The notes under the pieces: generated by a model
The model's input: only the letters and a program-made list of their open reading frames with translations
What the model was told of the DNA's origin: nothing
The model's database searches: none
Position numbers and translations under genes: made by a program
Shown: positions 4,922 to 45,378 of the stretch, in pieces
How the letters are laid out: every line of letters starts with the position of its first letter
How positions within the stretch are numbered: the stretch's first letter is position 1
From: Candidatus Udaeobacter sp.
GTDB taxonomy: Bacteria; Verrucomicrobiota; Verrucomicrobiia; Chthoniobacterales; UBA10450
Assembly: GCA_036499375.1 (NCBI GenBank)
Contig: DASYDV010000023.1
Span: 33,075-97,074 of the forward strand
Reading direction: 5' to 3'
Length of the DNA stretch: 64,000 nt

Positions 4922-6745
4922 ATGAACACAGTCTGGCGCGTTTTTGGTTATTTGAAGCGATATCCGTGGATGGCCGCGGGCACGTTGACCGCCGCGATTC
5001 TGAGCACGGTGATGGTGATCGTGTTCCCGAGCGTCACCAAATGGATCATTGATGACGTGGTGCGCGCCAACCGGCCGGACAAATTGCTGCCGCTGATTCT
5101 GTTCGCCGCTGTCGCTTTCCTCGTTCAACACCTTTTCAATTCGCTCCGGATCATTCTGAACAACACATTCGAGCAGAAGGTCATTTTCGATCTGCGCAGC
5201 GATTTGTATTCGCATATTCAACTCCTGCCGTTGCGCTGGTTTGATAATCGCGCCACGGGCGATCTGATGACGCGTGTCATCGAGGACGTGAACTCGGTCG
5301 AGCGGGTGTTGATCGATGGAATCGAGCAAGGCGTCGTAGCAATTCTGCAAATCGTGATCGTGCTGACGGTGATGTTTTATTGGAACGCGAAGCTGGCATT
5401 GTTTGCGCTTGTCCCGTTTCCACTGCTCGTCGGGGGTGCGCTCGCATACACGCTCACCGCGCATCGACGATATCGAGTACAGCGGCGCGCTGCATCAAAC
5501 ATTAATGCGTTGTTGCACGACAATCTTGCTGGAATCCGCCAGATCAAAAGCTTCGCGCGCGAACGCGAGGAGCACGCGCGTTTCAATCGGGCAAGCGATC
5601 AACTGCGGCACGCTACCCTGGTGGTAATGCGGACCTGGGCGATTTACTCGCCGTCGATGTCGATGTTTGAAGCGATCGGCGCCGTGCTGGTGCTTGGATT
5701 TGGCAGTCACGCCGTTTTGACAGGTACCATGCAGATCGGCGATCTGGTCGCGTTTCTGCTGCTGATGGCCTTTCTGTACGATCCGGTCAGCCGACTGCAT
5801 CAGCTGAATCAATTGGTGCAGGCCGGCCGCGCGGCGGGCGAACGGGTGTTCGACATTCTGGACGAAGCAACCGAACCGGGCTTTGGAGCTTTACAAGCGC
5901 AGACATCGCTGCGCACTCCAAATACGCGCATCATCGGAGACATTCGATATCACAACGTGAGCTTCAGTTATGTCGAAGGTCTGTCTGCGCTCAGGCACGT
6001 TTCATTTGATGCGCCGCCGGGCACGACGACGGCGTTGGTCGGCGCCACCGGCGCGGGAAAATCGACTCTGGTGAATTTGCTGGTGCGCTTCTATGAGTTC
6101 GACTCCGGCCAAATCTACGTCGATGGCAAACCGATTCGAGATTACGACCTGTGCACGCTGCGCGAAGCCGTCGGCGTAGTGACACAGGAAAGTTTTTTAT
6201 TCAACGGATCCATTCGTGAAAATCTTTTGATGGGCAAACCCAAAGCGTCTGAGGCGGAATTATGGCGCGCCGTGGACGCTGCGAACGCGCGGCAGTTCAT
6301 TGAGCGTTTGCCTGACGGTCTACAAAGCGTGGTTGGCGAGCGGGGCGTAAAGTTGAGCGTGGGCGAAAAACAACGGCTTTCAATCGCACGGGCGCTACTG
6401 AAGGACCCGCCTATTTTGATTCTTGATGAAGCCACTGCCAGCGTGGATACAGCAACGGAACGATTGATTCAGGAGGCGCTGGAACATCTGATGGCGAACC
6501 GCACATCGATTGTGATTGCGCATCGGCTTTCGACAATCGTGCGTGCCGACCAGATTCTGGTACTCGATCATGGCCAAATTATCGAGCGGGGCACACATGA
6601 GGAATTGCTCGCGCTCGATCGAAAATATGCGCAGCTATGCCGGCAGAGCTTGCTGGAGTCTTCGCCCCGGGCGGAGGTAGAACCCCGGGCGGAAGTAGTC
6701 ACGTCTGAAGTCCCGGAGACGGAACAGGAGCGATTGTCGGTCTAA
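4922..6745 (+). CDS. ABC exporter, fused permease/ATPase (MsbA/multidrug type)
   Basis: 607 aa. Six-TM N-terminal half, Walker A GATGAGKST, signature LSVGEKQRLSIARA, Walker B ILILDEATASVD and an H-loop AHRLST. Confidence 0.9.
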   Translation: MNTVWRVFGYLKRYPWMAAGTLTAAILSTVMVIVFPSVTKWIIDDVVRANRPDKLLPLILFAAVAFLVQHLFNSLRIILNNTFEQKVIFDLRSDLYSHIQLLPLRWFDNRATGDLMTRVIEDVNSVERVLIDGIEQGVVAILQIVIVLTVMFYWNAKLALFALVPFPLLVGGALAYTLTAHRRYRVQRRAASNINALLHDNLAGIRQIKSFAREREEHARFNRASDQLRHATLVVMRTWAIYSPSMSMFEAIGAVLVLGFGSHAVLTGTMQIGDLVAFLLLMAFLYDPVSRLHQLNQLVQAGRAAGERVFDILDEATEPGFGALQAQTSLRTPNTRIIGDIRYHNVSFSYVEGLSALRHVSFDAPPGTTTALVGATGAGKSTLVNLLVRFYEFDSGQIYVDGKPIRDYDLCTLREAVGVVTQESFLFNGSIRENLLMGKPKASEAELWRAVDAANARQFIERLPDGLQSVVGERGVKLSVGEKQRLSIARALLKDPPILILDEATASVDTATERLIQEALEHLMANRTSIVIAHRLSTIVRADQILVLDHGQIIERGTHEELLALDRKYAQLCRQSLLESSPRAEVEPRAEVVTSEVPETEQERLSV

Positions 6746-6798
6746 CAAGTCGGCTGCAACCAGGGACACACCATCATGGGTCAGGCAAGGCGCCTGGG

Positions 6799-7347
6799 TT
6801 ACGACAGATCGCTCAGCAAGAGGTCCTGATATTTTCGTTCCAACTCCGCATAACGTTGCTCGGTCTCCGCAGAAGCCCGGCGTTCCTCCTGGAGGGTTTG
6901 TTCAAGATCGCGAATTCGTTCCTGAAGACGAATGGACATTTTTGCAATGGCTGGGCCCACTGGATCGCCAAGTTGAATTTGTATTTGATCGTCATCAATT
7001 TGTGAGAGCGCTTTTTCCCACAGGTCCGGCATTTGCCGGATTTGACGACGAGTACCGTCACAGGTGTTGATGACGAAAGTTTCGCCGTCAATTTCACCGA
7101 GCCGAATAAACTCCTTTAATGCGCCGAGCGTGGTAGGTCCGTAATAATGTTCTGTTGTGAGCTCGACCAGCCAGTCCATGCCGAGCTGCGGGAGCATCGA
7201 CGCTTTAGTCCAAGTCTGCTGATCATTTGAGAGGGTGTCGTGTGGCGCGATGTGCGCGGCAGCTGCCCAACGCGCGATTTGATCGAACTGCACCGGGCCG
7301 AAGGTGCTTCCGTCCTCGTCCTTGCGGAGAAACCACCTTTGATTCAC
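6799..7347 (-). CDS. GYF_2 (DUF4339)-like domain protein with C-terminal coiled coil
   Basis: Two W....dG...GP.....l......G-type units (WFLRKDEDGSTFGPVQFDQIARW and YYGPTTLGALKEFIRLGEI). Heptad-like C-terminus. GTG start. Confidence 0.45.
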   Translation of the reverse strand: MNQRWFLRKDEDGSTFGPVQFDQIARWAAAAHIAPHDTLSNDQQTWTKASMLPQLGMDWLVELTTEHYYGPTTLGALKEFIRLGEIDGETFVINTCDGTRRQIRQMPDLWEKALSQIDDDQIQIQLGDPVGPAIAKMSIRLQERIRDLEQTLQEERRASAETEQRYAELERKYQDLLLSDLS

Positions 7348-7365
7348 GGGAGATTCGATTGCCAG

Positions 7366-7833
7366 TTAGGGCGGCGTGCTGGAAGCGGAAGCGGCAGGCG
7401 ACAGCGTCGGAATAACAATCGTCTGACCCGCCTGTAGTTTACGGCCGTCTTCGATGTGGTTAGCGTTTTCCAAGTCGTCCACAGTCACTTTGTACATCTT
7501 GGCGATTGATGTAAGCGTCTCCCCGCGCGCCACAGTGTGGCTGTTACCCGCAACGGCGGGGTGCGATGTCGAGAGGGACGGAGCGGCGCTAGCCGGCGTT
7601 GGCGCTCCTTCGCCGATCATTACGCCGGGACGAACATGAGAGAGTTGTTGCTCCAATTTTAGGATTTCCTGAGAAAGCGCGTCGATTTTCGCGTTTTGTT
7701 CGTCAATTTTCTTTGCAAGGGCTTCCAGTTGCGCCACCTGATCCGATTTCGTCCCATCCGGCGCCGGGGTCTGGGCAGAAGCAATGCAAAGCGCGAAAGC
7801 GCTTATCGCGCACAAAATGGCACTTACTTTCAT
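7366..7833 (-). CDS. secreted LysM-domain protein with coiled coil
   Basis: The internal ATG at 7833 gives the signal peptide MKVSAILCAISAFALCIASAQ. C-terminal LysM: HTVARGETLTSIAKMYKVTVDDLENANHIEDGRKLQAGQTIVIP. The longer track ORF (to 8091) overlaps the UBact gene and lacks a signal peptide. Confidence 0.75.
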   Translation of the reverse strand: MKVSAILCAISAFALCIASAQTPAPDGTKSDQVAQLEALAKKIDEQNAKIDALSQEILKLEQQLSHVRPGVMIGEGAPTPASAAPSLSTSHPAVAGNSHTVARGETLTSIAKMYKVTVDDLENANHIEDGRKLQAGQTIVIPTLSPAASASSTPP

Positions 7834-8037
7834 CAAAGCGAGACTTTGCCACCACCAGTTTTGTATGACAAGCGCCTTCGCCGCATTAAACGGTAAATAG
7901 TTGATGCGTTGAACAGGAAAATCAGATGCAACGTTATGACGATTTACGCTTGAGGAGAGCGACAGAAACTCGAATTGAAAGCGTGAACCCGCGAAGCGCA
8001 CAGCTTGCGTTTCCAACATTTGCTCGTACGTTTTTTT

Positions 8038-8214
8038 ATGCCTGAGCGCATTCAAAAGCCGGTTGAACCGGCTCCATGGGGACCTAAACAAGGCGATGGC
8101 GGGGGGCCGCGTTCGCCGGACATTTCGCGGCCGGACACAAAGGATCTCTTAAAAAAAATGCGCAAGGTCGATCCCAACCAGTCCAAGCGCTATCGCCAGC
8201 GCACCGGTCAGTGA
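8038..8214 (+). CDS. UBact-type prokaryotic ubiquitin-like protein (Pup homolog)
   Basis: 58 aa from the ATG at 8038: MPERIQKPVEP...DTKDLLKKMRKVDPNQSKRYRQRTGQ. The sequence looks disordered and ends in RTGQ, matching the published UBact C-terminal signature R[T/S]G[E/Q]. The stop overlaps the start of the proteasome beta gene. Confidence 0.7.
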   Translation: MPERIQKPVEPAPWGPKQGDGGGPRSPDISRPDTKDLLKKMRKVDPNQSKRYRQRTGQ

Positions 8215-9038
8215 TGGAGGGTTCACAGCTGGGATTCGACCAGAATTTTTCTGGTGCAGTTGGCGACTTTCCTTCGCTCTTGCGACGCAAAGGTCTGCTT
8301 GCTCCGGCTGTCGCCGGTCCGATGCCACAGAAGGCGATACAGCAACAGACGTGGCAACCAACCGAGGCGACCACGATTCTGGCGTTCAAGTTTTCCGAGG
8401 GCGTTCTGGTAGCAGGCGATCGGCGCGCGACTGCAGGCAATACCGTTGTATACGATCGCGCGGACAAAGTTTTGGAGATCGACCGGCACTCAATCATGGC
8501 CATCGCTGGTGTGCCTGCGACCGCCTGGGAAATGGCGCGCGTGCTCGAGCATTCACTCCAATATTTTCGGCGCACTCAACTGCAGGAAATGAGTGTTGAT
8601 GGAAAGGTGCGCGCTCTCTCAAAACTGTTGCGGGACAATTTTGGATTCGTCATCCAGGGCATCGGCGTAGTAGTGCCCATCTTCGCGACTTACGACGGAA
8701 ATTCCAAGCCGGAGGCGCGCCTCTATTTTTACGACGCGATGGGCGCACAATTTGAGGCGACGGATTACGCGGCAACTGGATCGGGCTCGCCGGCGGTGCG
8801 CGGCATTCTCTATTATGAAAACAATTGGGGCGCGAAGGCGCTGCACAAACTAAAGGAAGAGGAAGCAATATCGTTGACATTGCGTGCACTCGACACTGCG
8901 GCTGAATCGGATACCGCGACGGCGGGCGTGGATCGCAGCGGAAAAATTTATCCCGTGATAAAAATTGTTTCGCGCGAAGGCATCACAACTTTGCCAGAGA
9001 GCAAAATTGCCGCGGTGTTCAAGGAAATGGTTGCATGA
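8211..9038 (+). CDS. prcB: 20S proteasome beta subunit (PrcB-like) with propeptide
   Basis: About 55-aa propeptide, then TTILAFKFSEGVLVAGDRRAT (catalytic Thr position) and typical Ntn-hydrolase beta-subunit spacing. Overlaps both the UBact stop and the prcA start. Confidence 0.8.
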   Translation: MMEGSQLGFDQNFSGAVGDFPSLLRRKGLLAPAVAGPMPQKAIQQQTWQPTEATTILAFKFSEGVLVAGDRRATAGNTVVYDRADKVLEIDRHSIMAIAGVPATAWEMARVLEHSLQYFRRTQLQEMSVDGKVRALSKLLRDNFGFVIQGIGVVVPIFATYDGNSKPEARLYFYDAMGAQFEATDYAATGSGSPAVRGILYYENNWGAKALHKLKEEEAISLTLRALDTAAESDTATAGVDRSGKIYPVIKIVSREGITTLPESKIAAVFKEMVA

Positions 9039-9814
9039 TCGAAGAGCCGTATCGTTGGGTCGAAGCGATCGCCAACCGGCGCGAATACATCGAAGGGCAA
9101 CTCGCTCCTGGTAGTCCTATTGCAGCGCTCGGATTTCGCGACGGCATTCTATTTCTTACGCTCGGACAGACGCGTCAGAAACTTTTCGAGATTTACGATC
9201 GGATCGCGATGGGAGCGATTGGTCACCCGGGGGACATCGAGCGGTTGCGAATGGCGGCGATTGAACTGGCGAGCGCGGAAGGTTTCGCGCGTTCGGCGGC
9301 GGATGTTTCATTGCGGCGGCTTGCGCACTATTCGCTCAGTCCTGTCATGAAAAGCGCATTCGAACAGGTGTACGGTCCGCCGTATCTGGCGCGAATGCTT
9401 TTTGCCGAGGTGGGTGCGCGTCCAGAGGATGATTTGTTTTTGCGAGTCGAATACGACGGCGAAATCGCGAGCAACAGCGCAACCTATGCGCGAGTGCGAC
9501 AGGATTTTGCCGTGCTAGGCGGTACGCGACAATCGGGCGAACTGATGGAAGCATTTCTGAAAACCGAGCATAAACCGGATAGTAGCTTTGAAGCGGCGGT
9601 AAAGTCGGCGCTCGACGCATGGAGCGTCGGGCACATGTTGTTGCAAGACAGTGACGCAAAGGAACTGCCCAAGCGCGACGCCATTAAGCAGCATTGTCGG
9701 GAACAACTCGCCATGGCCGCCATCGAGGCAGCAGTGCTGGAACGCGCTGCTACAACGACAATTCGTTACCGTTCGTTCTCAGATAACGAATTGCGCTCGT
9801 TCATTACCGATTAA
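9035..9814 (+). CDS. prcA: 20S proteasome alpha subunit (PrcA-like)
   Basis: 259 aa. The start overlaps the prcB stop (ATGA). Proteasome-fold pattern GSPIAALGFRDGILFLT...IYDRIAMGAIGHPGDIE, with no N-terminal Thr nucleophile. Confidence 0.7.
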   Translation: MIEEPYRWVEAIANRREYIEGQLAPGSPIAALGFRDGILFLTLGQTRQKLFEIYDRIAMGAIGHPGDIERLRMAAIELASAEGFARSAADVSLRRLAHYSLSPVMKSAFEQVYGPPYLARMLFAEVGARPEDDLFLRVEYDGEIASNSATYARVRQDFAVLGGTRQSGELMEAFLKTEHKPDSSFEAAVKSALDAWSVGHMLLQDSDAKELPKRDAIKQHCREQLAMAAIEAAVLERAATTTIRYRSFSDNELRSFITD

Positions 9815-9848
9815 GTTGTGAAGACAACTTTTCTCGCGGAGATCACAA

Positions 9849-10643
9849 ATGAAACAGACCCTCCGGAATGTACTGGCAGTTGCTGGCTTATTGTTGATGA
9901 CTGCCTCTTTTATCTGGATGGCGCTTTATCAAAGCAAGCTACCCGGGTCCAGAAGACAATCGAAGGCAACACCGCCAACGTCGCCCAAACCATTTACAGC
10001 CGTCGTTCTTGATCCAGGCCACGGCGGTACGGACTCCGGCGCAATGTGTGGCGGCGTCATGGAGAAGGATCTGACGCTGGATGTCGCCCGCCGTGTCGAT
10101 CGCCTGTTAGGCTCGGAAGGGGTCGCCACGTTGATGACACGCATCGGGGACACTTACGTCTCGCTGGCGGACCGCGCAGCGCTTGGAAATCGGGTGAGAG
10201 ATAGCATTTTTGTCAGCATTCATTTCAACGAAGATAACAAAACAGTCGCGACCGGCGTGGAAACCTATTACGCTGCGCATCAGATCACTTCACCCTCTGT
10301 TCTCGCTTCCTGGCTGCCGTTTTTGATGCGAGCGCCGTCGGCCTCCCCGAAGCTGGAAAGCCAAAGCCTTGCCGGTTTCATTCAGGAAGCGTTGGTGGCA
10401 CGGACCCGCTCCGTCGACCGCGGGACGCAAGCCAAACAATTTTTTGTGATCGCGAACGTGACTTCTCCCGCGGTGTTGATTGAGGGCGGCTTTCTTACCA
10501 ACAAGGATGATGTTTCGAAACTGGCCAGCGAAGATTATCGCGACCAACTTGCGGCAGGTGTGGCCGGCGGGATTTTGCGGTACCGTGAAGCGGTGAGTGA
10601 GCGGAACTCACCTTTGGCAACAACAGACCCGGGAGAGCGCTGA
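9849..10643 (+). CDS. N-acetylmuramoyl-L-alanine amidase (Amidase_3, AmiC-like)
   Basis: Signal/TM N-terminus, VVLDPGHGGTDSGA, VSIHFNE, and a GGFLTNKDD tail. Confidence 0.85.
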   Translation: MKQTLRNVLAVAGLLLMTASFIWMALYQSKLPGSRRQSKATPPTSPKPFTAVVLDPGHGGTDSGAMCGGVMEKDLTLDVARRVDRLLGSEGVATLMTRIGDTYVSLADRAALGNRVRDSIFVSIHFNEDNKTVATGVETYYAAHQITSPSVLASWLPFLMRAPSASPKLESQSLAGFIQEALVARTRSVDRGTQAKQFFVIANVTSPAVLIEGGFLTNKDDVSKLASEDYRDQLAAGVAGGILRYREAVSERNSPLATTDPGER

Positions 10644-10679
10644 ATAGGCTAACGAATGTCGTCGTCGAATGAGTTAGGA

Positions 10680-11423
10680 ATGAAAATCAAAATCGCTGCG
10701 CTGATCTTCATTGGATCCATCGCGCTGGTGCGCGCGGATCAAGTGACCGAAAGCGTGCAGCAGGCTTTGAAGGACCAGGGCTTCTACTACGGTGAAATCA
10801 ACGGCGAAACGAATACGACTCTGACGGCAGCCATTCGGCGGTATCAGATTCGCAATGGGCTTCAAGTTACCGGCGAACTCAACGATGAGACGCTGCACTC
10901 ACTTGGGATTAAGTCTTCCGGCGGCCCACGACAAACGATCAAATCTGGGTCGCCCACTCCTCCCGCGGCTTCTACGTTGGACGAATCAGCGTCCAACGAA
11001 GCCGAAAACGCAACTCCTGCGCCGCCAGTTCAAAATTTTGGCAACGCCCCGCAAGGTCAACAGGTTTATCCATCAACACCCACGGGTCCGGCGACTTCAC
11101 CAGGAGCGGCGTTCGCCGGCACTCCATTTGAGAGCGCTCCTCCCGTGGTGCAACGCAATGTGGTCGTCTCCGCGCAGATAGCGCTGGCGCGCTATGGGCT
11201 ATATCGGCAACAGATTGACGGAATCTACGGACCAGCAATGGAACTTTCGCTGCGCGCTTATCAGGCGCGAACGAGACTTTCGGTGACCGGCCGACTCGAT
11301 TTGGAAACGCTCGCGGCGCTGCGCTTGTTGCCCGGCCCCCGCCAACGTTATTACGATCCTTACCATCAGCATAGGCGTCCTCCGCCCGGCCCACCGGTGC
11401 CCGGTCAATGGGTCCCTGACTGA
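10680..11423 (+). CDS. peptidoglycan-binding (PG_binding_1) repeat protein
   Basis: Signal peptide MKIKIAALIFIGSIALVRA from the ATG at 10680 (the track ORF starts at 10656). Two PG_binding_1-like units (LKDQGFYYGEINGETNTTLTAAIRRYQIRNGLQVTGELNDETL and LARYGLYRQQIDGIYGPAMELSLRAYQARTRLSVTGRLDLETL) separated by a Pro/Ser-rich linker. Confidence 0.7.
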   Translation: MKIKIAALIFIGSIALVRADQVTESVQQALKDQGFYYGEINGETNTTLTAAIRRYQIRNGLQVTGELNDETLHSLGIKSSGGPRQTIKSGSPTPPAASTLDESASNEAENATPAPPVQNFGNAPQGQQVYPSTPTGPATSPGAAFAGTPFESAPPVVQRNVVVSAQIALARYGLYRQQIDGIYGPAMELSLRAYQARTRLSVTGRLDLETLAALRLLPGPRQRYYDPYHQHRRPPPGPPVPGQWVPD

Positions 11424-36352: not shown

Positions 36353-37210
36353 CTATGGCGCGTTTTGGAAAAACGCATTTTCAAACGTTGGTTGAAAAGC
36401 GCCGGGGTCTGTGTCGCTGATTTGAAATCGTGGACTGATTTCGGATTGCGTCGCACAATACATTTCCACCTCGATCCTGCCGCACTTCTCCAGCGAGGCG
36501 CGCACCGTAGCCAGCGCAAGAGCCGGTGTATTACAATCCCGGCTCAAGTGTCCGAGTACGACACGCTCGATGTTTCCTGATAATAGTTCCTCGATCACGC
36601 CAGCCGCAGCCGTGTTCGACAAATGGCCGTGGCGCGACTGGATCCGCTGTTTCACCGGCCACGGTCGATGGGCATCGTTCTGCAAAAGTTTTTCGTCGTG
36701 ATTCGTCTCGACCACAAGCGTTCGCACCTGTCGCAACCGTTCGACGATCATCTTGGTCACATAACCAAGGTCGGTGATAAAACCGAGACTGCCTGAGCCC
36801 GCGTGAAACACGAACCCGATCGGGTCCACGGCGTCGTGCGGCACGGGGAATGTTTGCACTGTGATGTCGCAGATAGAAAATTCCGCGCCCGTCGGGAAGA
36901 GCCGCCAATTACGGCATCTCTCTGCGAGACCACTGGACCGAAGCGCCTCAGCGGTGAGCCCGTTACAATAAATCGGCAGATCAAATTTGTGGCAGAGAAC
37001 TTCGAGGCCGCAGATGTGATCGCTGTGTTCGTGTGTAAGAACAACGCCATCGAGCTGCTCAGGAGTTACGCCGCATTGCTCCAGGCGCAACACCACTTGC
37101 CGCGCGCTCAGTCCGCCATCAACAAGGATCTTGCAGTGATCGGTTGCAACCAGCGCACTGTTTCCCGCGCTTCCGCTGCCAAGCATGGTCAAGCTGAACA
37201 CGGGTCCCAA
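36353..37210 (-). CDS. MBL-fold metallo-hydrolase
   Basis: LGSGSAGNS, VLTHEHSDH (HxHxDH), a later VPHDA and HGHLSN. TTG start. Confidence 0.8.
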   Translation of the reverse strand: MGPVFSLTMLGSGSAGNSALVATDHCKILVDGGLSARQVVLRLEQCGVTPEQLDGVVLTHEHSDHICGLEVLCHKFDLPIYCNGLTAEALRSSGLAERCRNWRLFPTGAEFSICDITVQTFPVPHDAVDPIGFVFHAGSGSLGFITDLGYVTKMIVERLRQVRTLVVETNHDEKLLQNDAHRPWPVKQRIQSRHGHLSNTAAAGVIEELLSGNIERVVLGHLSRDCNTPALALATVRASLEKCGRIEVEMYCATQSEISPRFQISDTDPGAFQPTFENAFFQNAP

Positions 37211-37360: not shown

Positions 37361-38173
37361 ATGCCAACTGGAGCGTCTCTCCACATCGGTCTCAACGCTG
37401 TCGACCCAAAACAGTACAGCGGCTGGGACGGACAACTTACTGCCTGCGAGTTCGACGCGAACGACATGCAGGCGTTAGCTAAAAAACAACGCTTCACAAA
37501 GGTGACCAAGCGACTGACGAAAGCGGCAACACGCAATCAGATGTTGGCCGATATCAAAGCGGCCGCGGCGAAACTAAAACGGAACGACATTTTCTTTCTC
37601 TCTTATTCGGGCCATGGCGGCCAGGTGCCGAATACCGGGAACGATTTCGAGCCGGACGGGTTTGATGAAACGTGGTGCTTGTACGATGGCGAACTGATCG
37701 ATGACGAGCTTTATGCAGCGCTGAATCAATTCGCCGCGGGTGTGCGAATTTTCGTGCTGTCGGACAGTTGCCATAGCGGCACGGTTCTGCGCGAGGCGCA
37801 TTTCTCGGCCCTCGGCCTGGCTCCCGTCCGTCCCCGGATGATGCCGCGAGACGTTGCGCTGCGCGTTTACATGGATCACCAGAATTTCTACGACAAACTG
37901 CAACAACGCGGCGCCGACCCGCGTACGAAGATGCGCGCCACCGGGGTTTTGATCTCCGGTTGTCAGGACAACCAAACAAGCTCGGACGGCGACCGAAACG
38001 GTTTGTTCACCGAGACGCTGCTTGCTGTTTGGAAAAATGGAAAATTTAAGGGGGATTATCGCGGGTTTCAGAAATCGATCGTGAAACTGATGCCGCCCAC
38101 GCAGACGCCGAATTATTTCACCATCGGACCCGCAAACTACGGTTTCGAAAAACAGAAACCGTTCACGGTTTAA
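37361..38173 (+). CDS. caspase-family (peptidase C14) orthocaspase, stand-alone
   Basis: 270 aa. The p20-like part has FFLSYSGHGG (His85, codon 37613-37615) and FVLSDSCHSG (Cys137, codon 37769-37771). The p10-like part has ISGCQDNQTSSDG. Confidence 0.8.
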   Translation: MPTGASLHIGLNAVDPKQYSGWDGQLTACEFDANDMQALAKKQRFTKVTKRLTKAATRNQMLADIKAAAAKLKRNDIFFLSYSGHGGQVPNTGNDFEPDGFDETWCLYDGELIDDELYAALNQFAAGVRIFVLSDSCHSGTVLREAHFSALGLAPVRPRMMPRDVALRVYMDHQNFYDKLQQRGADPRTKMRATGVLISGCQDNQTSSDGDRNGLFTETLLAVWKNGKFKGDYRGFQKSIVKLMPPTQTPNYFTIGPANYGFEKQKPFTV

Positions 38174-38178
38174 TCGAA

Positions 38179-39993
38179 ATGAAAATTCTCCTGGTTCACG
38201 GAGTCGGCCACCAGGAGCGCCCGGACAATCAGCCATGGGAAGAACCCTGGGAAAAAGCGATCAGCGCCGGCATCCAGTATTTCGATCCTGCCTCTGTGCC
38301 AACGTACGAGCGCTTCGATTACGATAGTTTGTTCTCGGGGAAGATTAATCTTCTCACCGACGTTGGCGCTGCAGCGAACCTCGGGTTCGCGCCCGTCGGA
38401 GCCGCCATCGAAGATGCAGCTCAGACCGTTTCCGGGTGGTTCCGCCCGAGACGGGGCTTATTGGATTTTGCGAAACCCGCCGACGGTTGGCACGCGGGGA
38501 TGGTCGCCGAGTGGGACCAGAACGCACAGTTGCGTGCTGCGTTGCGCAAACGTTTGATCGAGCGAATCGACACGTTCAATCCGGACGTCATCATGGCGCA
38601 TAGTCTGGGGAGCATCATTTGTTACGACGCGTTTTCGAATGAGGACAAAAATGGTTGCGCTGGGCGGTATTTCGTTACGTTCGGCTCACAAATCGCCAAT
38701 CCGTTTCTCAAAGCCGCGCATTTCGGCAACAAGATCGCTGGTGTTAAGCAGAAATACTGGTTTCATCTGTTTAACAAAAGCGATCCGGTCCTTGCTCATC
38801 GGATTGTCGATCCCGTTCCGAACTTTGAGGAAATTTCCTGGGACGACCGTGTCGCCGGTCATGATGCGATAGTCGATTTAGATAAGTTTCCCGGGCACGC
38901 CGGTTATCTCCAACGGGATTTGACGCGGCAAGACGTGTATCGCGTTCTCGCGCAACGACCGGGCGTGCGCGCCCTCGCAAGGCGAAGCACCCAATTCCAG
39001 AGCACGGTGCAAAAACGCCGGCGACGCGCATTACTTATCGGCATCAACGACTATCCCGACCCAAGCTCGCGTCTGGAAGGCTGCGTAAACGACGTCTTTC
39101 TTATGAGCAGCGTTTTGCAGGAAATCGGATTCGACGCGGAAGATATTCGAGTCGTGCTCGACGAGCGCGCCACTGCCGCGGCGATTCGCGAACGGATCGA
39201 CTGGTTGCTGGACGGCACGGCCGATGGTCACGAGCGCGTCCTTTATTATAGCGGCCATGGCGCACAATTGCCCGACTACAACGCGGCGGAACGAATCGAT
39301 CATGTGGATGAATGCCTGGTGCCGTACGATTTTCATTGGACACAGGACAGCGCCATTACCGACGACGATTTTCTGCGGTACTACAGCGCGCTTTCATACA
39401 GCGCGAAGTTTTTCGCCGTCTTCGATTGCTGCCACTCGGGCGGCTTGACCCGGGATGGCGCGAGGAAGATTCGCGCAATCACTCCGCCGGACGATATCCG
39501 GCACCGAATGCTTCGCTGGAACCAAGCGGAACAAATGTGGGAAGAGCGCGACCTGCGGAACCTCAACCCCGATTTCGGTGGTAGCCGCGAGGTTCGCCAA
39601 AAATATATGGGACGCAATGGCAGCACGAAAAAACTCGGCACCGCAATGAGCCTGCGTGAAGAACAAACCGCGACGCAGTATCGAAAGGCGCCACGCGAAC
39701 GTCGCGGCCCGTACATGCCCGTGGTCCTCACGGCGTGTCAGGAGGATGGCTACGCGTATGAATATCACCACGGAACGATCAGCTATGGAGTGTTCACGTA
39801 TGCGCTGGCCAAGGAATTTCGCAAAGCGCAGGCGGCACGCGCGGCCGATCTGTCGTTCAACTCGCTGAGCAAACGCGTGAATGCGACGATGAAGACACTA
39901 CGTTACGATCAAGTCTCTGGCGTCAAAGGACCGAAAGAAACCTGTCGCGCGCCGGTATTGGGATTGCCGCCAAAAAAAGCGCGCTCTCGTTAG
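38179..39993 (+). CDS. alpha/beta-hydrolase (GxSxG esterase/lipase-like) fused to a caspase-family (C14) domain
   Basis: 604 aa, starting 5 nt after the previous stop. N-terminal half: ILLVHGVGH, IMAHSLGS (Ser142, codon 38602-38604), NKSDPV, GHDAI. C-terminal half: ALLIGINDY, LYYSGHGA (His360, codon 39256-39258), AVFDCCHSGG (Cys418, codon 39430-39432), LTACQEDGYA. Confidence 0.8.
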   Translation: MKILLVHGVGHQERPDNQPWEEPWEKAISAGIQYFDPASVPTYERFDYDSLFSGKINLLTDVGAAANLGFAPVGAAIEDAAQTVSGWFRPRRGLLDFAKPADGWHAGMVAEWDQNAQLRAALRKRLIERIDTFNPDVIMAHSLGSIICYDAFSNEDKNGCAGRYFVTFGSQIANPFLKAAHFGNKIAGVKQKYWFHLFNKSDPVLAHRIVDPVPNFEEISWDDRVAGHDAIVDLDKFPGHAGYLQRDLTRQDVYRVLAQRPGVRALARRSTQFQSTVQKRRRRALLIGINDYPDPSSRLEGCVNDVFLMSSVLQEIGFDAEDIRVVLDERATAAAIRERIDWLLDGTADGHERVLYYSGHGAQLPDYNAAERIDHVDECLVPYDFHWTQDSAITDDDFLRYYSALSYSAKFFAVFDCCHSGGLTRDGARKIRAITPPDDIRHRMLRWNQAEQMWEERDLRNLNPDFGGSREVRQKYMGRNGSTKKLGTAMSLREEQTATQYRKAPRERRGPYMPVVLTACQEDGYAYEYHHGTISYGVFTYALAKEFRKAQAARAADLSFNSLSKRVNATMKTLRYDQVSGVKGPKETCRAPVLGLPPKKARSR

Positions 39994-42134: not shown

Positions 42135-42633
42135 ATGGAATCGAGCGAAGCTCTTGGCATTGCTGCGCAGATCGCGGTCGCATTGGCCGGTTTTGCCGGC
42201 GTGGTCGTCGTTTTTCGTCGGGAATCCGTCCATGAATGGTCGGCCGTCGATAAGCTCCGGTTGCGGCTTTTGCTCGGCAATTCCCTCGTGCCGCTGAGCC
42301 TTTCCATGTTAGGAATGTTGTTACTTACGGATCACACGCATTCCGGCCGGAATTTGGCGATGGTGCAGCGTTACCGGCTTTGTGGTTTCTTTGATCTTCG
42401 CCGTTACGATGACTAAAGACTTTCGTCGTTTGGATATGCGACAGATCCAGCGCGAACGCGCCACGCCCTTCGTTTTTTATCTATTCGGAATGTTCGGCAT
42501 AGCAGCAAACATCTTGCAACTGTACAACGCTGCCTTTCTTGGCGCATTCTGGCCGTTCTTTACCGGTATTATCTTCCAGATTATCACCGCGCTGTTTCAG
42601 TTTGCGCGAATGATCCTTCTGCTGCCTGAATGA
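42135..42633 (+). pseudogene. membrane protein paralog of 44763-45263, interrupted by a 1-nt frameshift
   Basis: ORF 42135-42416 (MESSEALGIAAQIAVALAGFAGVVVVFRRESVHEW...MLLLT) and ORF 42382-42633 (...ILQLYNAAFLGAFWPFFTGIIFQ) align with the N- and C-halves of the 44763-45263 protein. The frame changes at the extra g near 42330. Confidence 0.6.
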
Positions 42634-44761: not shown

Positions 44762-45378
44762 GTCATTTGATAACGGACCGCGGAGGAAGAACAAGCCGCA
44801 CGAACTGCAACATCGCAGCCATGAGATGGACGAAGATCGCGGCAAAGAATGGCCAAAACCTGTTCAGCACTGCGATGTTGTAAAGTTGCAGCAAAAGTGT
44901 CGAGATCCCGATCGCAAACAATGGATAAAACAAGATTTTGGGCACGCCTTTGAATTCGTCGGGACTAAAGCGGCGCGGCGTTCTGAAATTTATGATTGCA
45001 AACGGCACTTGGAAAGCCGCGGCAAACGCACTGCACCATTGCCAGATCGAATTCGGCGGGGGCTTGATCGTGAGCAACAACATTCCAAACAACGAATAAG
45101 CGAGCGGAAAGATGGAATTGTTGAGCAGCAAGTGTAGGCGATACCGGTCGACGGGCGACCATTGGTGCACCGATTCAGGTCGAAAAACGACCACGATGCC
45201 GGCGAACCCGGCCAGGGTCACCGCCACCTGAGCGGCGATACCGAGAGCTTCATTCGGTTCCATTGCCTCTGCGATTAAAAATGCAACTGATGTCGCGATC
45301 AAACCTTAAAGCTCAGGATGTTAGAAGGGATCTGGTCGGGGACTGCGTTTTGGGATTATGTGATCGCGCTACATCTAA
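44645..45378 (-). mobile_element. putative integron-type gene cassette (one ORF plus its attC)
   Basis: Bounded by the G/TT positions of the two attC-like sites. The cassette begins TTAGAT, and its own attC inverse core is ATCTAAC, the exact complement expected for a cassette. Confidence 0.5.
44763..45263 (-). CDS. membrane protein of unknown function (cassette ORF; paralog of 42135-42633)
   Basis: The ATG at 45263 gives MEPNEALGIAAQVAVTLAGFAGIVVVFRPESVHQW..., co-linear with the start of the paralog. Four to five TM helices. Confidence 0.55.
   Translation of the reverse strand: MEPNEALGIAAQVAVTLAGFAGIVVVFRPESVHQWSPVDRYRLHLLLNNSIFPLAYSLFGMLLLTIKPPPNSIWQWCSAFAAAFQVPFAIINFRTPRRFSPDEFKGVPKILFYPLFAIGISTLLLQLYNIAVLNRFWPFFAAIFVHLMAAMLQFVRLVLPPRSVIK

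Follow-up and report, generated by a model that had tools for sequence, protein, structure and literature searches.

A sensor-less locus of Candidatus Udaeobacter pairing a GSU0716-type metacaspase with a predicted hydrolase-metacaspase fusion

What is the role of two adjacent caspase-family genes, one of which carries a hydrolase-like domain in front of its protease, in the genome of Candidatus Udaeobacter? The question is raised by a stretch of 64,000 nucleotides (nt) of contig DASYDV010000023.1 (assembly GCA_036499375.1, positions 33,075 to 97,074 of the forward strand), hereafter called the window, in which gene 1 (37361-38173, plus strand; an open reading frame [ORF] of 270 amino acids [aa]) and gene 2 (38179-39993, plus strand; 604 aa) are co-oriented, with gene 2 starting 5 nt past the gene 1 stop codon. 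All coordinates are window positions unless a locus name is given, and the features of both genes lie on the plus strand. The original prediction, made from the sequence of the window, had read the two genes as a unit with a 5-nt gap, intact caspase dyads and a live serine hydrolase at the N-terminus of gene 2, had taken the pair for a self-contained insert, and had not recognized it as a described system. Both ORFs and the gap were borne out; the other claims are taken up below. Here we propose, giving it about an even chance of being right, that the locus is a two-gene, sensor-less module of a latent hydrolase and metacaspases, in which cuts after conserved arginines would unleash the hydrolase and gene 1 would act as partner protease.

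The N-terminal domain of gene 2 resembles caspase-associated hydrolases

The N-terminal domain of gene 2 (aa 1-262, 38179-38964; hereafter the N-domain) was examined with an AlphaFold2 model, Foldseek, alignment columns and hhalign. It matched no Pfam family at E ≤ 10, including Lipase_x and the three families that the original prediction had named as candidates (Abhydrolase_6, DUF676 and PGAP1), and searches of NCBIfam, PADLOC and PDB sequences returned nothing meaningful. Structure prediction gave a six-stranded alpha/beta fold (predicted local distance difference test [pLDDT] 79.4, predicted template modeling score [pTM] 0.80), with strands at residues 2-6, 42-46, 137-141, 164-168, 193-199 and 216-221. 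In this model the oxyanion residues His7-Gly8 (38197-38202; LVHGVGH, residues 5-11), the nucleophile Ser142 (38602-38604; AHSLGS), Asp202 (38782-38784) and His228 (38860-38862) follow successive strands in the canonical alpha/beta-hydrolase order, as judged by strand order and not by measured triad geometry. Foldseek searches of the PDB retrieved an Archaeoglobus fulgidus lipase (E = 8.5e-5), the phospholipase-type DDHD domain of Nir2 (E = 1e-3) and, weakly, a lipase effector of a type VI secretion system (T6SS), all at low TM-scores. Across alignments of 26 to 34 relatives, His7-Gly8, the xHS142LGx elbow, G169-S-Q, W194, N199 and D202 are invariant and H228 is nearly so. The model, the lipase matches and this conservation support, at the level of prediction, a minimal alpha/beta-hydrolase that looks like a live serine hydrolase, with Ser142-Asp202-His228 plus the HG motif as its catalytic set; the two motifs of the original prediction are exact in position, and the fold that it proposed is the one predicted here.

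Pairing of alpha/beta-hydrolase effectors with caspases has been described for NTP-dependent conflict systems, with some cases combining two caspase domains and a hydrolase (Kaur, Burroughs, Iyer & Aravind 2020, PMC7159879). In the Lysobacter capsici pair of a more recent preprint, LcCaspase cuts the LcHydrolase zymogen at two Arg-Gly sites, after Arg73 and after Arg117, and the cut fragments are toxic, with the substrate of the hydrolase unknown (Evans et al. 2025, PMC12642450). A tblastn search of plasmids with the N-domain gave weak Streptomyces matches, two of which were examined. The gene for a 322-aa protein of Streptomyces longwoodensis lies directly upstream of three others, which encode a VMAP-M2 protein, a MoxR-like AAA protein and a WD40 protein. 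The N-terminus of this VMAP-M2 protein has caspase-like GHG and DTCYAG motifs, seen by eye, and neither gene 1 nor the caspase domain of gene 2 showed similarity to this protein by BLASTP. In S. atratus, a 230-aa protein is encoded beside a 1693-aa caspase-like-STAND-WD40 protein. The N-domain profile aligns over the full length of the S. longwoodensis protein (hhalign probability 98.7%, E = 3.6e-16) and also matches the S. atratus protein (97.3%, E = 1.7e-11), with the HG, xHSLGx, (T/S)xGS, NxxDxV and His motifs of the N-domain and both plasmid hydrolases in register. Because of these probabilities and the aligned catalytic motifs, the N-domain is, on profile evidence, a homologue of caspase-adjacent stand-alone hydrolases that fit the published effector description. 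Its superfamily would also be that of LcHydrolase, judging by the published description of the family and contexts of that protein and not by sequence. The pairing has thus been known since 2020 and characterized since 2025, and the view that it was not a described system does not hold. The idea that a protease licenses the hydrolase, by analogy, matches the experiment on the related hydrolase family.

The metacaspase domain of gene 2 and its candidate cleavage sites

The second half of gene 2 is a metacaspase-like C14 domain (aa 281-582, 39019-39924; PF00656, E = 2.2e-30, 106.5 bits versus a cut-off of 21.4) with its catalytic His360 in SGHG (39256-39258) and Cys418 in DCCHSG (39430-39432). 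Its closest solved relatives are AtMC4, AtMC9, TbMCA2 and Yca1 (E from 8e-20 to 9e-14). The linker between its p20 and p10 parts, of about 90 aa, is poorly ordered, with low pLDDT at residues 420-445 and 481-512 of the full-length AlphaFold2 model. Both the gene 1 and the gene 2 proteins have GC-x-x-D and D-x-C-H-S-G patterns together with an acidic D-E-C/W-x-x-P/Y-D cluster. These features, typical of metacaspases and including, in the GC-x-x-D and D-x-C-H-S-G patterns, the metacaspase S1 pocket, would predict Arg/Lys specificity in both proteins and perhaps Ca2+ control.

Conserved arginines are found at three places in gene 2 where such a protease might cut. In the lid or insert loop of the hydrolase (aa 71-101, 38389-38481), the R92-G93 dipeptide (38452-38457) is part of an F-R-x-R-R92-G93-(L/F)-x-D motif, with Leu at the variable position here, in which the Arg is kept in 23 and the Gly in 21 of 29 family members and which is found in nearly all of 68 full-length homologues. 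The bond between R92 and G93 is a predicted protease cleavage site by analogy with the Arg-Gly sites of LcHydrolase (PMC12642450). The loop is disordered in both AlphaFold2 models (aa 70-102), and its pLDDT is below 50 in the isolated-domain model and, with no gain, in the full-length model. A second conserved basic residue, directly before W104 at the W-T-A-G-M helix, is present in most homologues and lost in Udaeobacter. The interdomain linker (aa 263-280, 38965-39018), modeled as a helix over residues 263-279 in the full-length protein, ends in a polybasic K279-R-R-R-R283 stretch that abuts the first caspase strand, and in nearly all gene 2 homologues such a basic stretch, (K/R)-x-(K/R)-R, comes before ALLVGIN. 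The third place is R432-A433 (39472-39477), 14 residues past the catalytic Cys in the p20-p10 linker, where an almost invariant R-(G/A)-x-x-P-P-D-D-I-R-H-R motif has RG in 49 and RA in 17 of 68 homologues, the gene 2 protein of the window being one with RA. This position after the catalytic Cys is the canonical intersubunit-linker processing site in caspases. Conservation of Arg-Gly motifs at two of these places, the lid loop and the intersubunit linker, suggests proteolytic licensing, and the occurrence of the same type of dipeptide in both would fit a single Arg-specific protease that licenses both.

The C-terminus of gene 2 (39970-39993) forms a modest polybasic tail (PPKKARSR). Such a tail is present in 18 of the 68 homologues, with up to 12 Lys or Arg in the last 20 residues, and might bind membrane or nucleic acid.

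Gene 1 is a metacaspase of the GSU0716 family

Gene 1, whose ATG is preceded by an AAAGGA motif, matches Peptidase_C14 over residues 17-237 (PF00656, E = 2.9e-21, 76.7 bits versus the same cut-off of 21.4), with catalytic His85 in SGHG (37613-37615) and Cys137 in DSCHSG (37769-37771). The C14 domains and dyads listed for both genes in the original prediction are therefore correct in every position, and the dyads are kept in the homologues of either gene. Residues 1-270 of gene 1 align with residues 1-277 of GSU0716 from Geobacter sulfurreducens (PDB 3BIJ; phmmer E = 3.5e-96), a protein that has p20 and p10 parts and to which the term "bacterial type I metacaspase without prodomain" has been applied (Choi & Berges 2013, PMC3734836). 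By this homology, gene 1 would be a stand-alone metacaspase of the widespread GSU0716 family that lacks a prodomain and consists of p20-like and p10-like parts. The family gave more than 7,700 search matches, with many members of 270-278 aa that are 58-61% identical across phyla, and identity between gene 1 and the caspase domain of gene 2 is about 26%.

Small metacaspases recur beside second proteases

At every Udaeobacter locus, gene 1 is immediately upstream of gene 2, with a gap of 3-5 nt between intact ORFs. A more distant relative (locus L002) keeps the pair in another genomic context, with a gene 1 that is 70% identical and a gap of 6 nt. Among 57 distant loci with gene 2 homologues, a small caspase is tightly linked and co-oriented in four, being of the GSU0716 type (55-56% identity) upstream in L035 and downstream in L079, and more divergent downstream in L029 and upstream in L048. 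Small-caspase adjacency is therefore seen in five lineages (Udaeobacter with L002, L029, L035, L048 and L079), with gaps of 3-61 nt and in either order, and by a rough estimate the chance of two C14 genes being adjacent is about 1e-3 per locus, far below what is seen. No conserved neighbor of the gene 2 homologues is common across phyla at the 57 distant loci. Seen from the other side, GSU0716-family genes adjoin a second cysteine-protease gene in seven of nine metagenomic or metagenome-assembled genome (MAG) contexts sampled and are solitary in the other two, in metabolic neighborhoods. The genes beside them encode N-domain-C14 proteins, a C14 protein with a formylglycine-generating enzyme (FGE)-sulfatase domain, a short C14 protein, Peptidase_C1 together with an endonuclease/exonuclease/phosphatase (EEP)-family protein, and a DUF7379-CHAT protein. 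We read the link between GSU0716-type metacaspases and second proteases as probably functional, real but non-obligatory. The pairing claimed by the original prediction is in this sense upheld by its recurrence across lineages and gene orders. A survey of homologue neighborhoods, which it had suggested, gives a split picture: co-occurrence is found in five lineages and is missing from most of the distant loci, and no consistent defense island is seen.

Other sets of genes around GSU0716-type metacaspases were observed as well. In four Deltaproteobacteria-type contigs (L089, at 6001-8826, and L090, L091 and L095), a GSU0716-type gene is followed by a 305-aa Peptidase_C1 gene. In L089 to L091 there is also an EEP-family gene, and the whole set is downstream of a response-regulator/AraC gene. 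Plasmid copies are mixed, with a solitary one on a Bacillus plasmid and a fused, 636-aa version on Rhizobium leguminosarum pRle248d (L098) near C1, trypsin-like and EEP genes. The sets of GSU0716-type, C1 and EEP genes may be a recurrent multiprotease module. In a Flavobacteriales MAG (L094, 5001-9391), a gene 1 homologue is followed after 21 nt by a gene for a 1190-aa protein with DUF7379 and CHAT, in which DUF7379 has a T-H-S-R-G-G motif resembling a nucleophile elbow. Alignment of DUF7379 with the N-domain by hhalign matched the elbow alone, at a probability of 0.5%, and the PDB and the literature were of no help; the L094 pair may be a second, independent case of a small caspase next to a hydrolase-like/caspase-like fusion.

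The hydrolase-caspase fusion is widespread but patchy

The fusion of gene 2 is found in at least 273 species of about 185,000 scanned, with a patchy distribution over many phyla, among them Verrucomicrobiota, Planctomycetota, Alpha-, Beta- and Gammaproteobacteria (including Bradyrhizobium, Hoeflea, Roseibium and Pseudoxanthomonas), Desulfuromonadales/Geomonas and Bacteroidota. An exhaustive search with the N-domain profile at E ≤ 1e-3 retrieved 2,719 cluster representatives, of which 253 passed E ≤ 1e-30, and the top ones are mostly about 600 aa long. Gene 2 orthologues have 603-609 aa in Udaeobacter, and homologues about 570-640 aa across many phyla. No viral homologues of the N-domain were found in IMG/VR. 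Across 80 genome loci, nearly every N-domain is joined to this particular caspase domain, and a truly stand-alone copy is rare (L071). Some proteins depart from this pattern, with four (P0221, P0227, P0239 and P0240) having a papain-like Peptidase_C1 in place of the caspase and seven (P0306, P0342, P0350, P0309, P0292, P0361 and P0376) adding phospholipase C (PLC)-like phosphoesterase (PF04185), phospholipase D (PLD)-like or FAD-oxidase/ALO domains to the N-domain-caspase core. The N-domain appears to be modular, and the added PLC/PLD domains hint at lipids or phosphoesters as substrates, in keeping with a modular protease-effector whose activities are directed at lipids.

In Bradyrhizobium japonicum (P0024, P0033 and P0042), the gene is frameshifted in or before the caspase domain on many contigs, one of them of 10.9 Mb, and the copy of B. 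liaoningense (L080) is intact; this suggests pseudogenization in some strains. Two kinds of neighbor are shared by a few gene 2 homologues each: an upstream gene for a protein of 381-451 aa that has no Pfam match (L030, at 6240-7595, and L040, L050 and L067), and a downstream gene for an astacin-like metalloprotease with a PPC domain (L042, at 9794-10810, and L043, L070 and L082).

The pair is a conserved locus of Udaeobacter

A Pfam scan of the window places a divergent metallo-beta-lactamase (MBL)-fold gene (Lactamase_B_2; 36353-37210, minus strand, 285 aa) upstream of gene 1, with STAS-like, SDR and MeaB/B12 genes beyond it, and a convergent phosphotransferase system (PTS) EIIA-type gene followed by DUF2270 downstream of gene 2, so that the original prediction of a divergent MBL gene and a convergent ptsN-like gene was right. 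A scan with the N-domain profile, in which each species was represented by one genome, recovered copies that are 84-88% identical in Candidatus Udaeobacter and in uncultured Verrucomicrobiae MAGs, and in about 20 Udaeobacter genomes the gene order is MeaB-SDR-STAS-MBL-(variable)-gene 1-gene 2-(variable)-EIIA-DUF2270-K channel. The GC content of the pair equals that of its flanks, no tRNAs are encoded in the window, and the Pfam and tRNA scans found no mobile-element marks at the locus. Ratios of nonsynonymous to synonymous substitution rates (dN/dS) are 0.06-0.10 for both genes, with values of up to 0.11 for gene 1, in comparisons with eight Udaeobacter-clade orthologue pairs, and because this is strong purifying selection, both genes are in all probability functional. 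Split ORFs of the pair occur in some MAGs, at places that differ between genomes, and may be assembly errors. On the grounds of flank-like GC content, the absence of tRNAs, the lack of meaningful PADLOC matches in the flanks, low dN/dS and synteny, we argue that the pair is a vertically inherited, syntenic core locus of Udaeobacter, and neither a defense island nor the self-contained insert for which it had been taken.

The gaps between the MBL gene and gene 1 and between gene 2 and the EIIA gene sometimes hold unrelated genes (L013, 3663-7019; L010, 9913-11301), encoding a 1118-aa secreted protein or a Tat-signal, pyridoxal phosphate (PLP)-dependent enzyme; the pair itself is constant, in a region that is mildly prone to gene gain. 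Caspase-paired, protease-activated MBL pro-nucleases exist (PMC12642450, PMC12799240), and the MBL gene of the window was considered in this light. It is unlikely to be one, with Lactamase_B_2 covering it end to end without insertions, similarity to Avs1a/LmuA models that is N-terminal and generic, and no MBL gene beside the pair in L002 or beside the genes of distant loci. Elsewhere in the window, a small multi-pass membrane protein is encoded by two paralogous genes in inverted orientation (42135-42633, plus strand; 44763-45302, minus strand), which bracket a segment with K-channel, dienelactone-hydrolase-like and glyoxalase genes. The second copy is intact (179 aa), whereas the first consists of two ORFs, as if frameshifted; the ORF of 93 aa is 74% identical to the N-terminal part of the intact protein, and that of 83 aa is 45% identical to the C-terminal part.

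A proposed mechanism and its alternatives

In the mechanism that we propose for the module, one or both metacaspases would be switched on, perhaps by Ca2+ or stress as eukaryotic metacaspases are, and would cut after the conserved arginines, namely between R92 and G93 in the lid loop, at the polybasic interdomain junction, and between R432 and A433 in the intersubunit linker. The hydrolase, freed or opened in this way, would attack an ester substrate, most likely a membrane lipid, with growth arrest or cell death as the outcome. Gene 1, which seems to be translationally coupled to gene 2, would most likely be the partner protease, either as initiator or amplifier or as part of a hetero-oligomer with the caspase domain of gene 2. 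The cascade suggested in the original prediction is in this light a reasonable idea, and its membrane-attacking, abortive-infection outcome a conjecture.

A number of observations weigh against this proposal. The full-length AlphaFold2 model (pLDDT 71, pTM 0.55) gives no sign of the R92 loop docking on the caspase domain, the N-domain has one conserved R-G where LcHydrolase has two, and hhalign places R92-G93 at no position equivalent to the RG dipeptides of the S. longwoodensis protein. The comparison with LcHydrolase, by family and context description only, is indirect, and the TM-scores of the Foldseek matches are low (0.36-0.42). Furthermore, no sensor gene (STAND, VMAP, vWA, MoxR or WD40) is found in gene 1, gene 2, the window or near the homologues, the flanks are of housekeeping type with no meaningful PADLOC matches among their proteins, and 135 neighbors at 37 loci of gene 2 homologues gave PADLOC matches to one HamA, three PDC-S05/MADS-like ATPases and three caspases, with HamA as the sole clear defense gene and no consistent island. 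Synteny and vertical inheritance are unusual for defense or programmed cell death cassettes, and at 53 of the 57 distant loci no small caspase lies within about 8 kb of the gene 2 homologue, so that the partner is facultative.

The core-genome, non-defense context favors the main alternative explanation, namely that both proteins are non-lethal housekeeping or stress proteases, active in quality control or processing as reported for yeast Yca1, with the N-domain recruiting substrates or acting as an ordinary esterase or acyl-hydrolase, and with the adjacency reflecting shared regulation. A syntenic locus with metabolic flanks under strong purifying selection, with no sensor, immunity gene or mobile-element marks, is what one would expect from it, as are gene 2 homologues that are mostly solitary in varied non-defense contexts and GSU0716-type genes that also stand alone in metabolic neighborhoods. 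It fits less well with an N-domain that is homologous to conflict-system effector hydrolases and repeatedly fused to alternative proteases and PLC/PLD-like domains, with the patchy distribution over many phyla, with Arg-Gly motifs that are conserved in disordered loops, and with the frameshifted B. japonicum copies, which suggest a gene that is dispensable or costly; we regard this explanation as possible, though doubtful. Rather unlikely, in our judgment, is that gene 1 is independent of gene 2, so that the gene 2 protein would be complete and activate itself, and the two genes would have come to adjoin in Udaeobacter by accident, through a clustering of paralogous protease genes in this lineage. 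The many distant homologues without a small caspase speak for such independence, as do the low identity between the two caspase domains and the size of the gene 1 family, which exceeds the few hundred to 2,700 N-domain representatives and mostly occurs without gene 2. An accident would still have to account for tight, co-oriented adjacency in five lineages and in both orders at the chance level estimated above, for the survival of the pair through a change of genomic context in L002, and for the other cysteine proteases that adjoin GSU0716-type genes in most sampled contexts. That gene 2 is an exported, interbacterial toxin in the style of lipase effectors, and not an intracellular suicide or regulatory enzyme, is brought to mind by the weak T6SS effector match and by PLC/PLD-like fusions that resemble polymorphic toxins. 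It is very improbable with N-termini (MKILLVHG and MPTGASLHIG) that show no signal peptide or secretion-system marker and with no conserved immunity gene or T6SS or type VII secretion system (T7SS) neighbors around the gene 2 homologues.

The proposed module of latent hydrolase and metacaspases can be taken one step further, to a sensor-less, two-tier metacaspase cascade in which GSU0716-type proteins would be general partners or initiators for cysteine-protease-fused effectors (C14-hydrolase, Peptidase_C1, CHAT-DUF7379 and C14-FGE). The Udaeobacter pair would then be a chromosomal, vertically inherited executioner of cell death or membrane remodeling that responds to physiological cues, for example to Ca2+ influx or damage, and not to a phage sensor. 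We consider this extension speculative and improbable as it stands; if true, it would be a bacterial counterpart of damage-activated plant metacaspases.

Significance

The hydrolase-caspase pairing itself is of an already described kind. New, to judge by the literature searched, are the union of hydrolase and protease in one chain without a sensor, the wide occurrence of this form and its GSU0716-type partner. The fusions of about 600 aa are annotated only as "caspase family protein" or "hypothetical," and in the species concerned, at least 273, this gap is filled by the link of the N-domain to protease-activated effectors. Being fused and without a sensor, this form may represent a minimal or ancestral version of the module, and as a simple system of one chain, gene 2 lends itself to studying how cleavage opens the hydrolase and which substrate is attacked. 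For GSU0716, an orphan structure for 18 years, the recurrent adjacency to a second protease gives a testable functional hypothesis. In the specific case of Candidatus Udaeobacter, which is known from soil metagenomes, the pair is in the core genome, and regulated self-lysis or membrane remodeling, if true, would be ecologically relevant.

Comparison with known systems

With trypsin-MBL and caspase-MBL, Pepco, EACC1 and gasdermin modules, the locus would share a latent effector licensed by site-specific proteolysis, as proposed here; the effector fold of those modules is other than the hydrolase of gene 2, and no gasdermin, Pepco or EACC1 genes are present at the locus. Gene 1 is like GSU0716 in its full-length alignment, size, intact His/Cys dyad and p10-like region, and differs in adjoining a hydrolase-metacaspase fusion, to which we read it as translationally coupled. 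Eukaryotic metacaspases (AtMC4, AtMC9, Yca1 and TbMCA2) include the closest relatives of the gene 2 caspase domain among solved structures. Together with cyanobacterial orthocaspases they have in common with gene 2 the DxxDECxVPxD...DD acidic cluster and the GCxxD and DxCHSG patterns, and type II metacaspases also have its long p20-p10 linker, whereas gene 2 is bacterial, hydrolase-fused and without prodomain or zinc finger.

The nearest comparison is with the systems of Kaur et al. (PMC7159879) and with LcHydrolase (PMC12642450). There, hydrolase and caspase are encoded by neighboring genes, whereas gene 2 unites them in one polypeptide, with a caspase domain that is clearly metacaspase-like and has a long p20-p10 linker, one conserved R-G in the hydrolase versus two cut sites in LcHydrolase, and a GSU0716-type stand-alone metacaspase as extra partner. 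The Udaeobacter locus also differs in having no VMAP, vWA, MoxR, STAND or WD40 sensor and in being chromosomal, syntenic and outside any defense island. The likenesses are that the hydrolase of gene 2 has homologues on two Streptomyces plasmids, in caspase-adjacent hydrolases that fit both published descriptions, that it is physically coupled to a caspase-family protease with a second C14 gene adjacent, a combination of two caspases and a hydrolase that Kaur et al. noted too, and that it has a conserved Arg-Gly in a flexible insert ahead of the lid helix.

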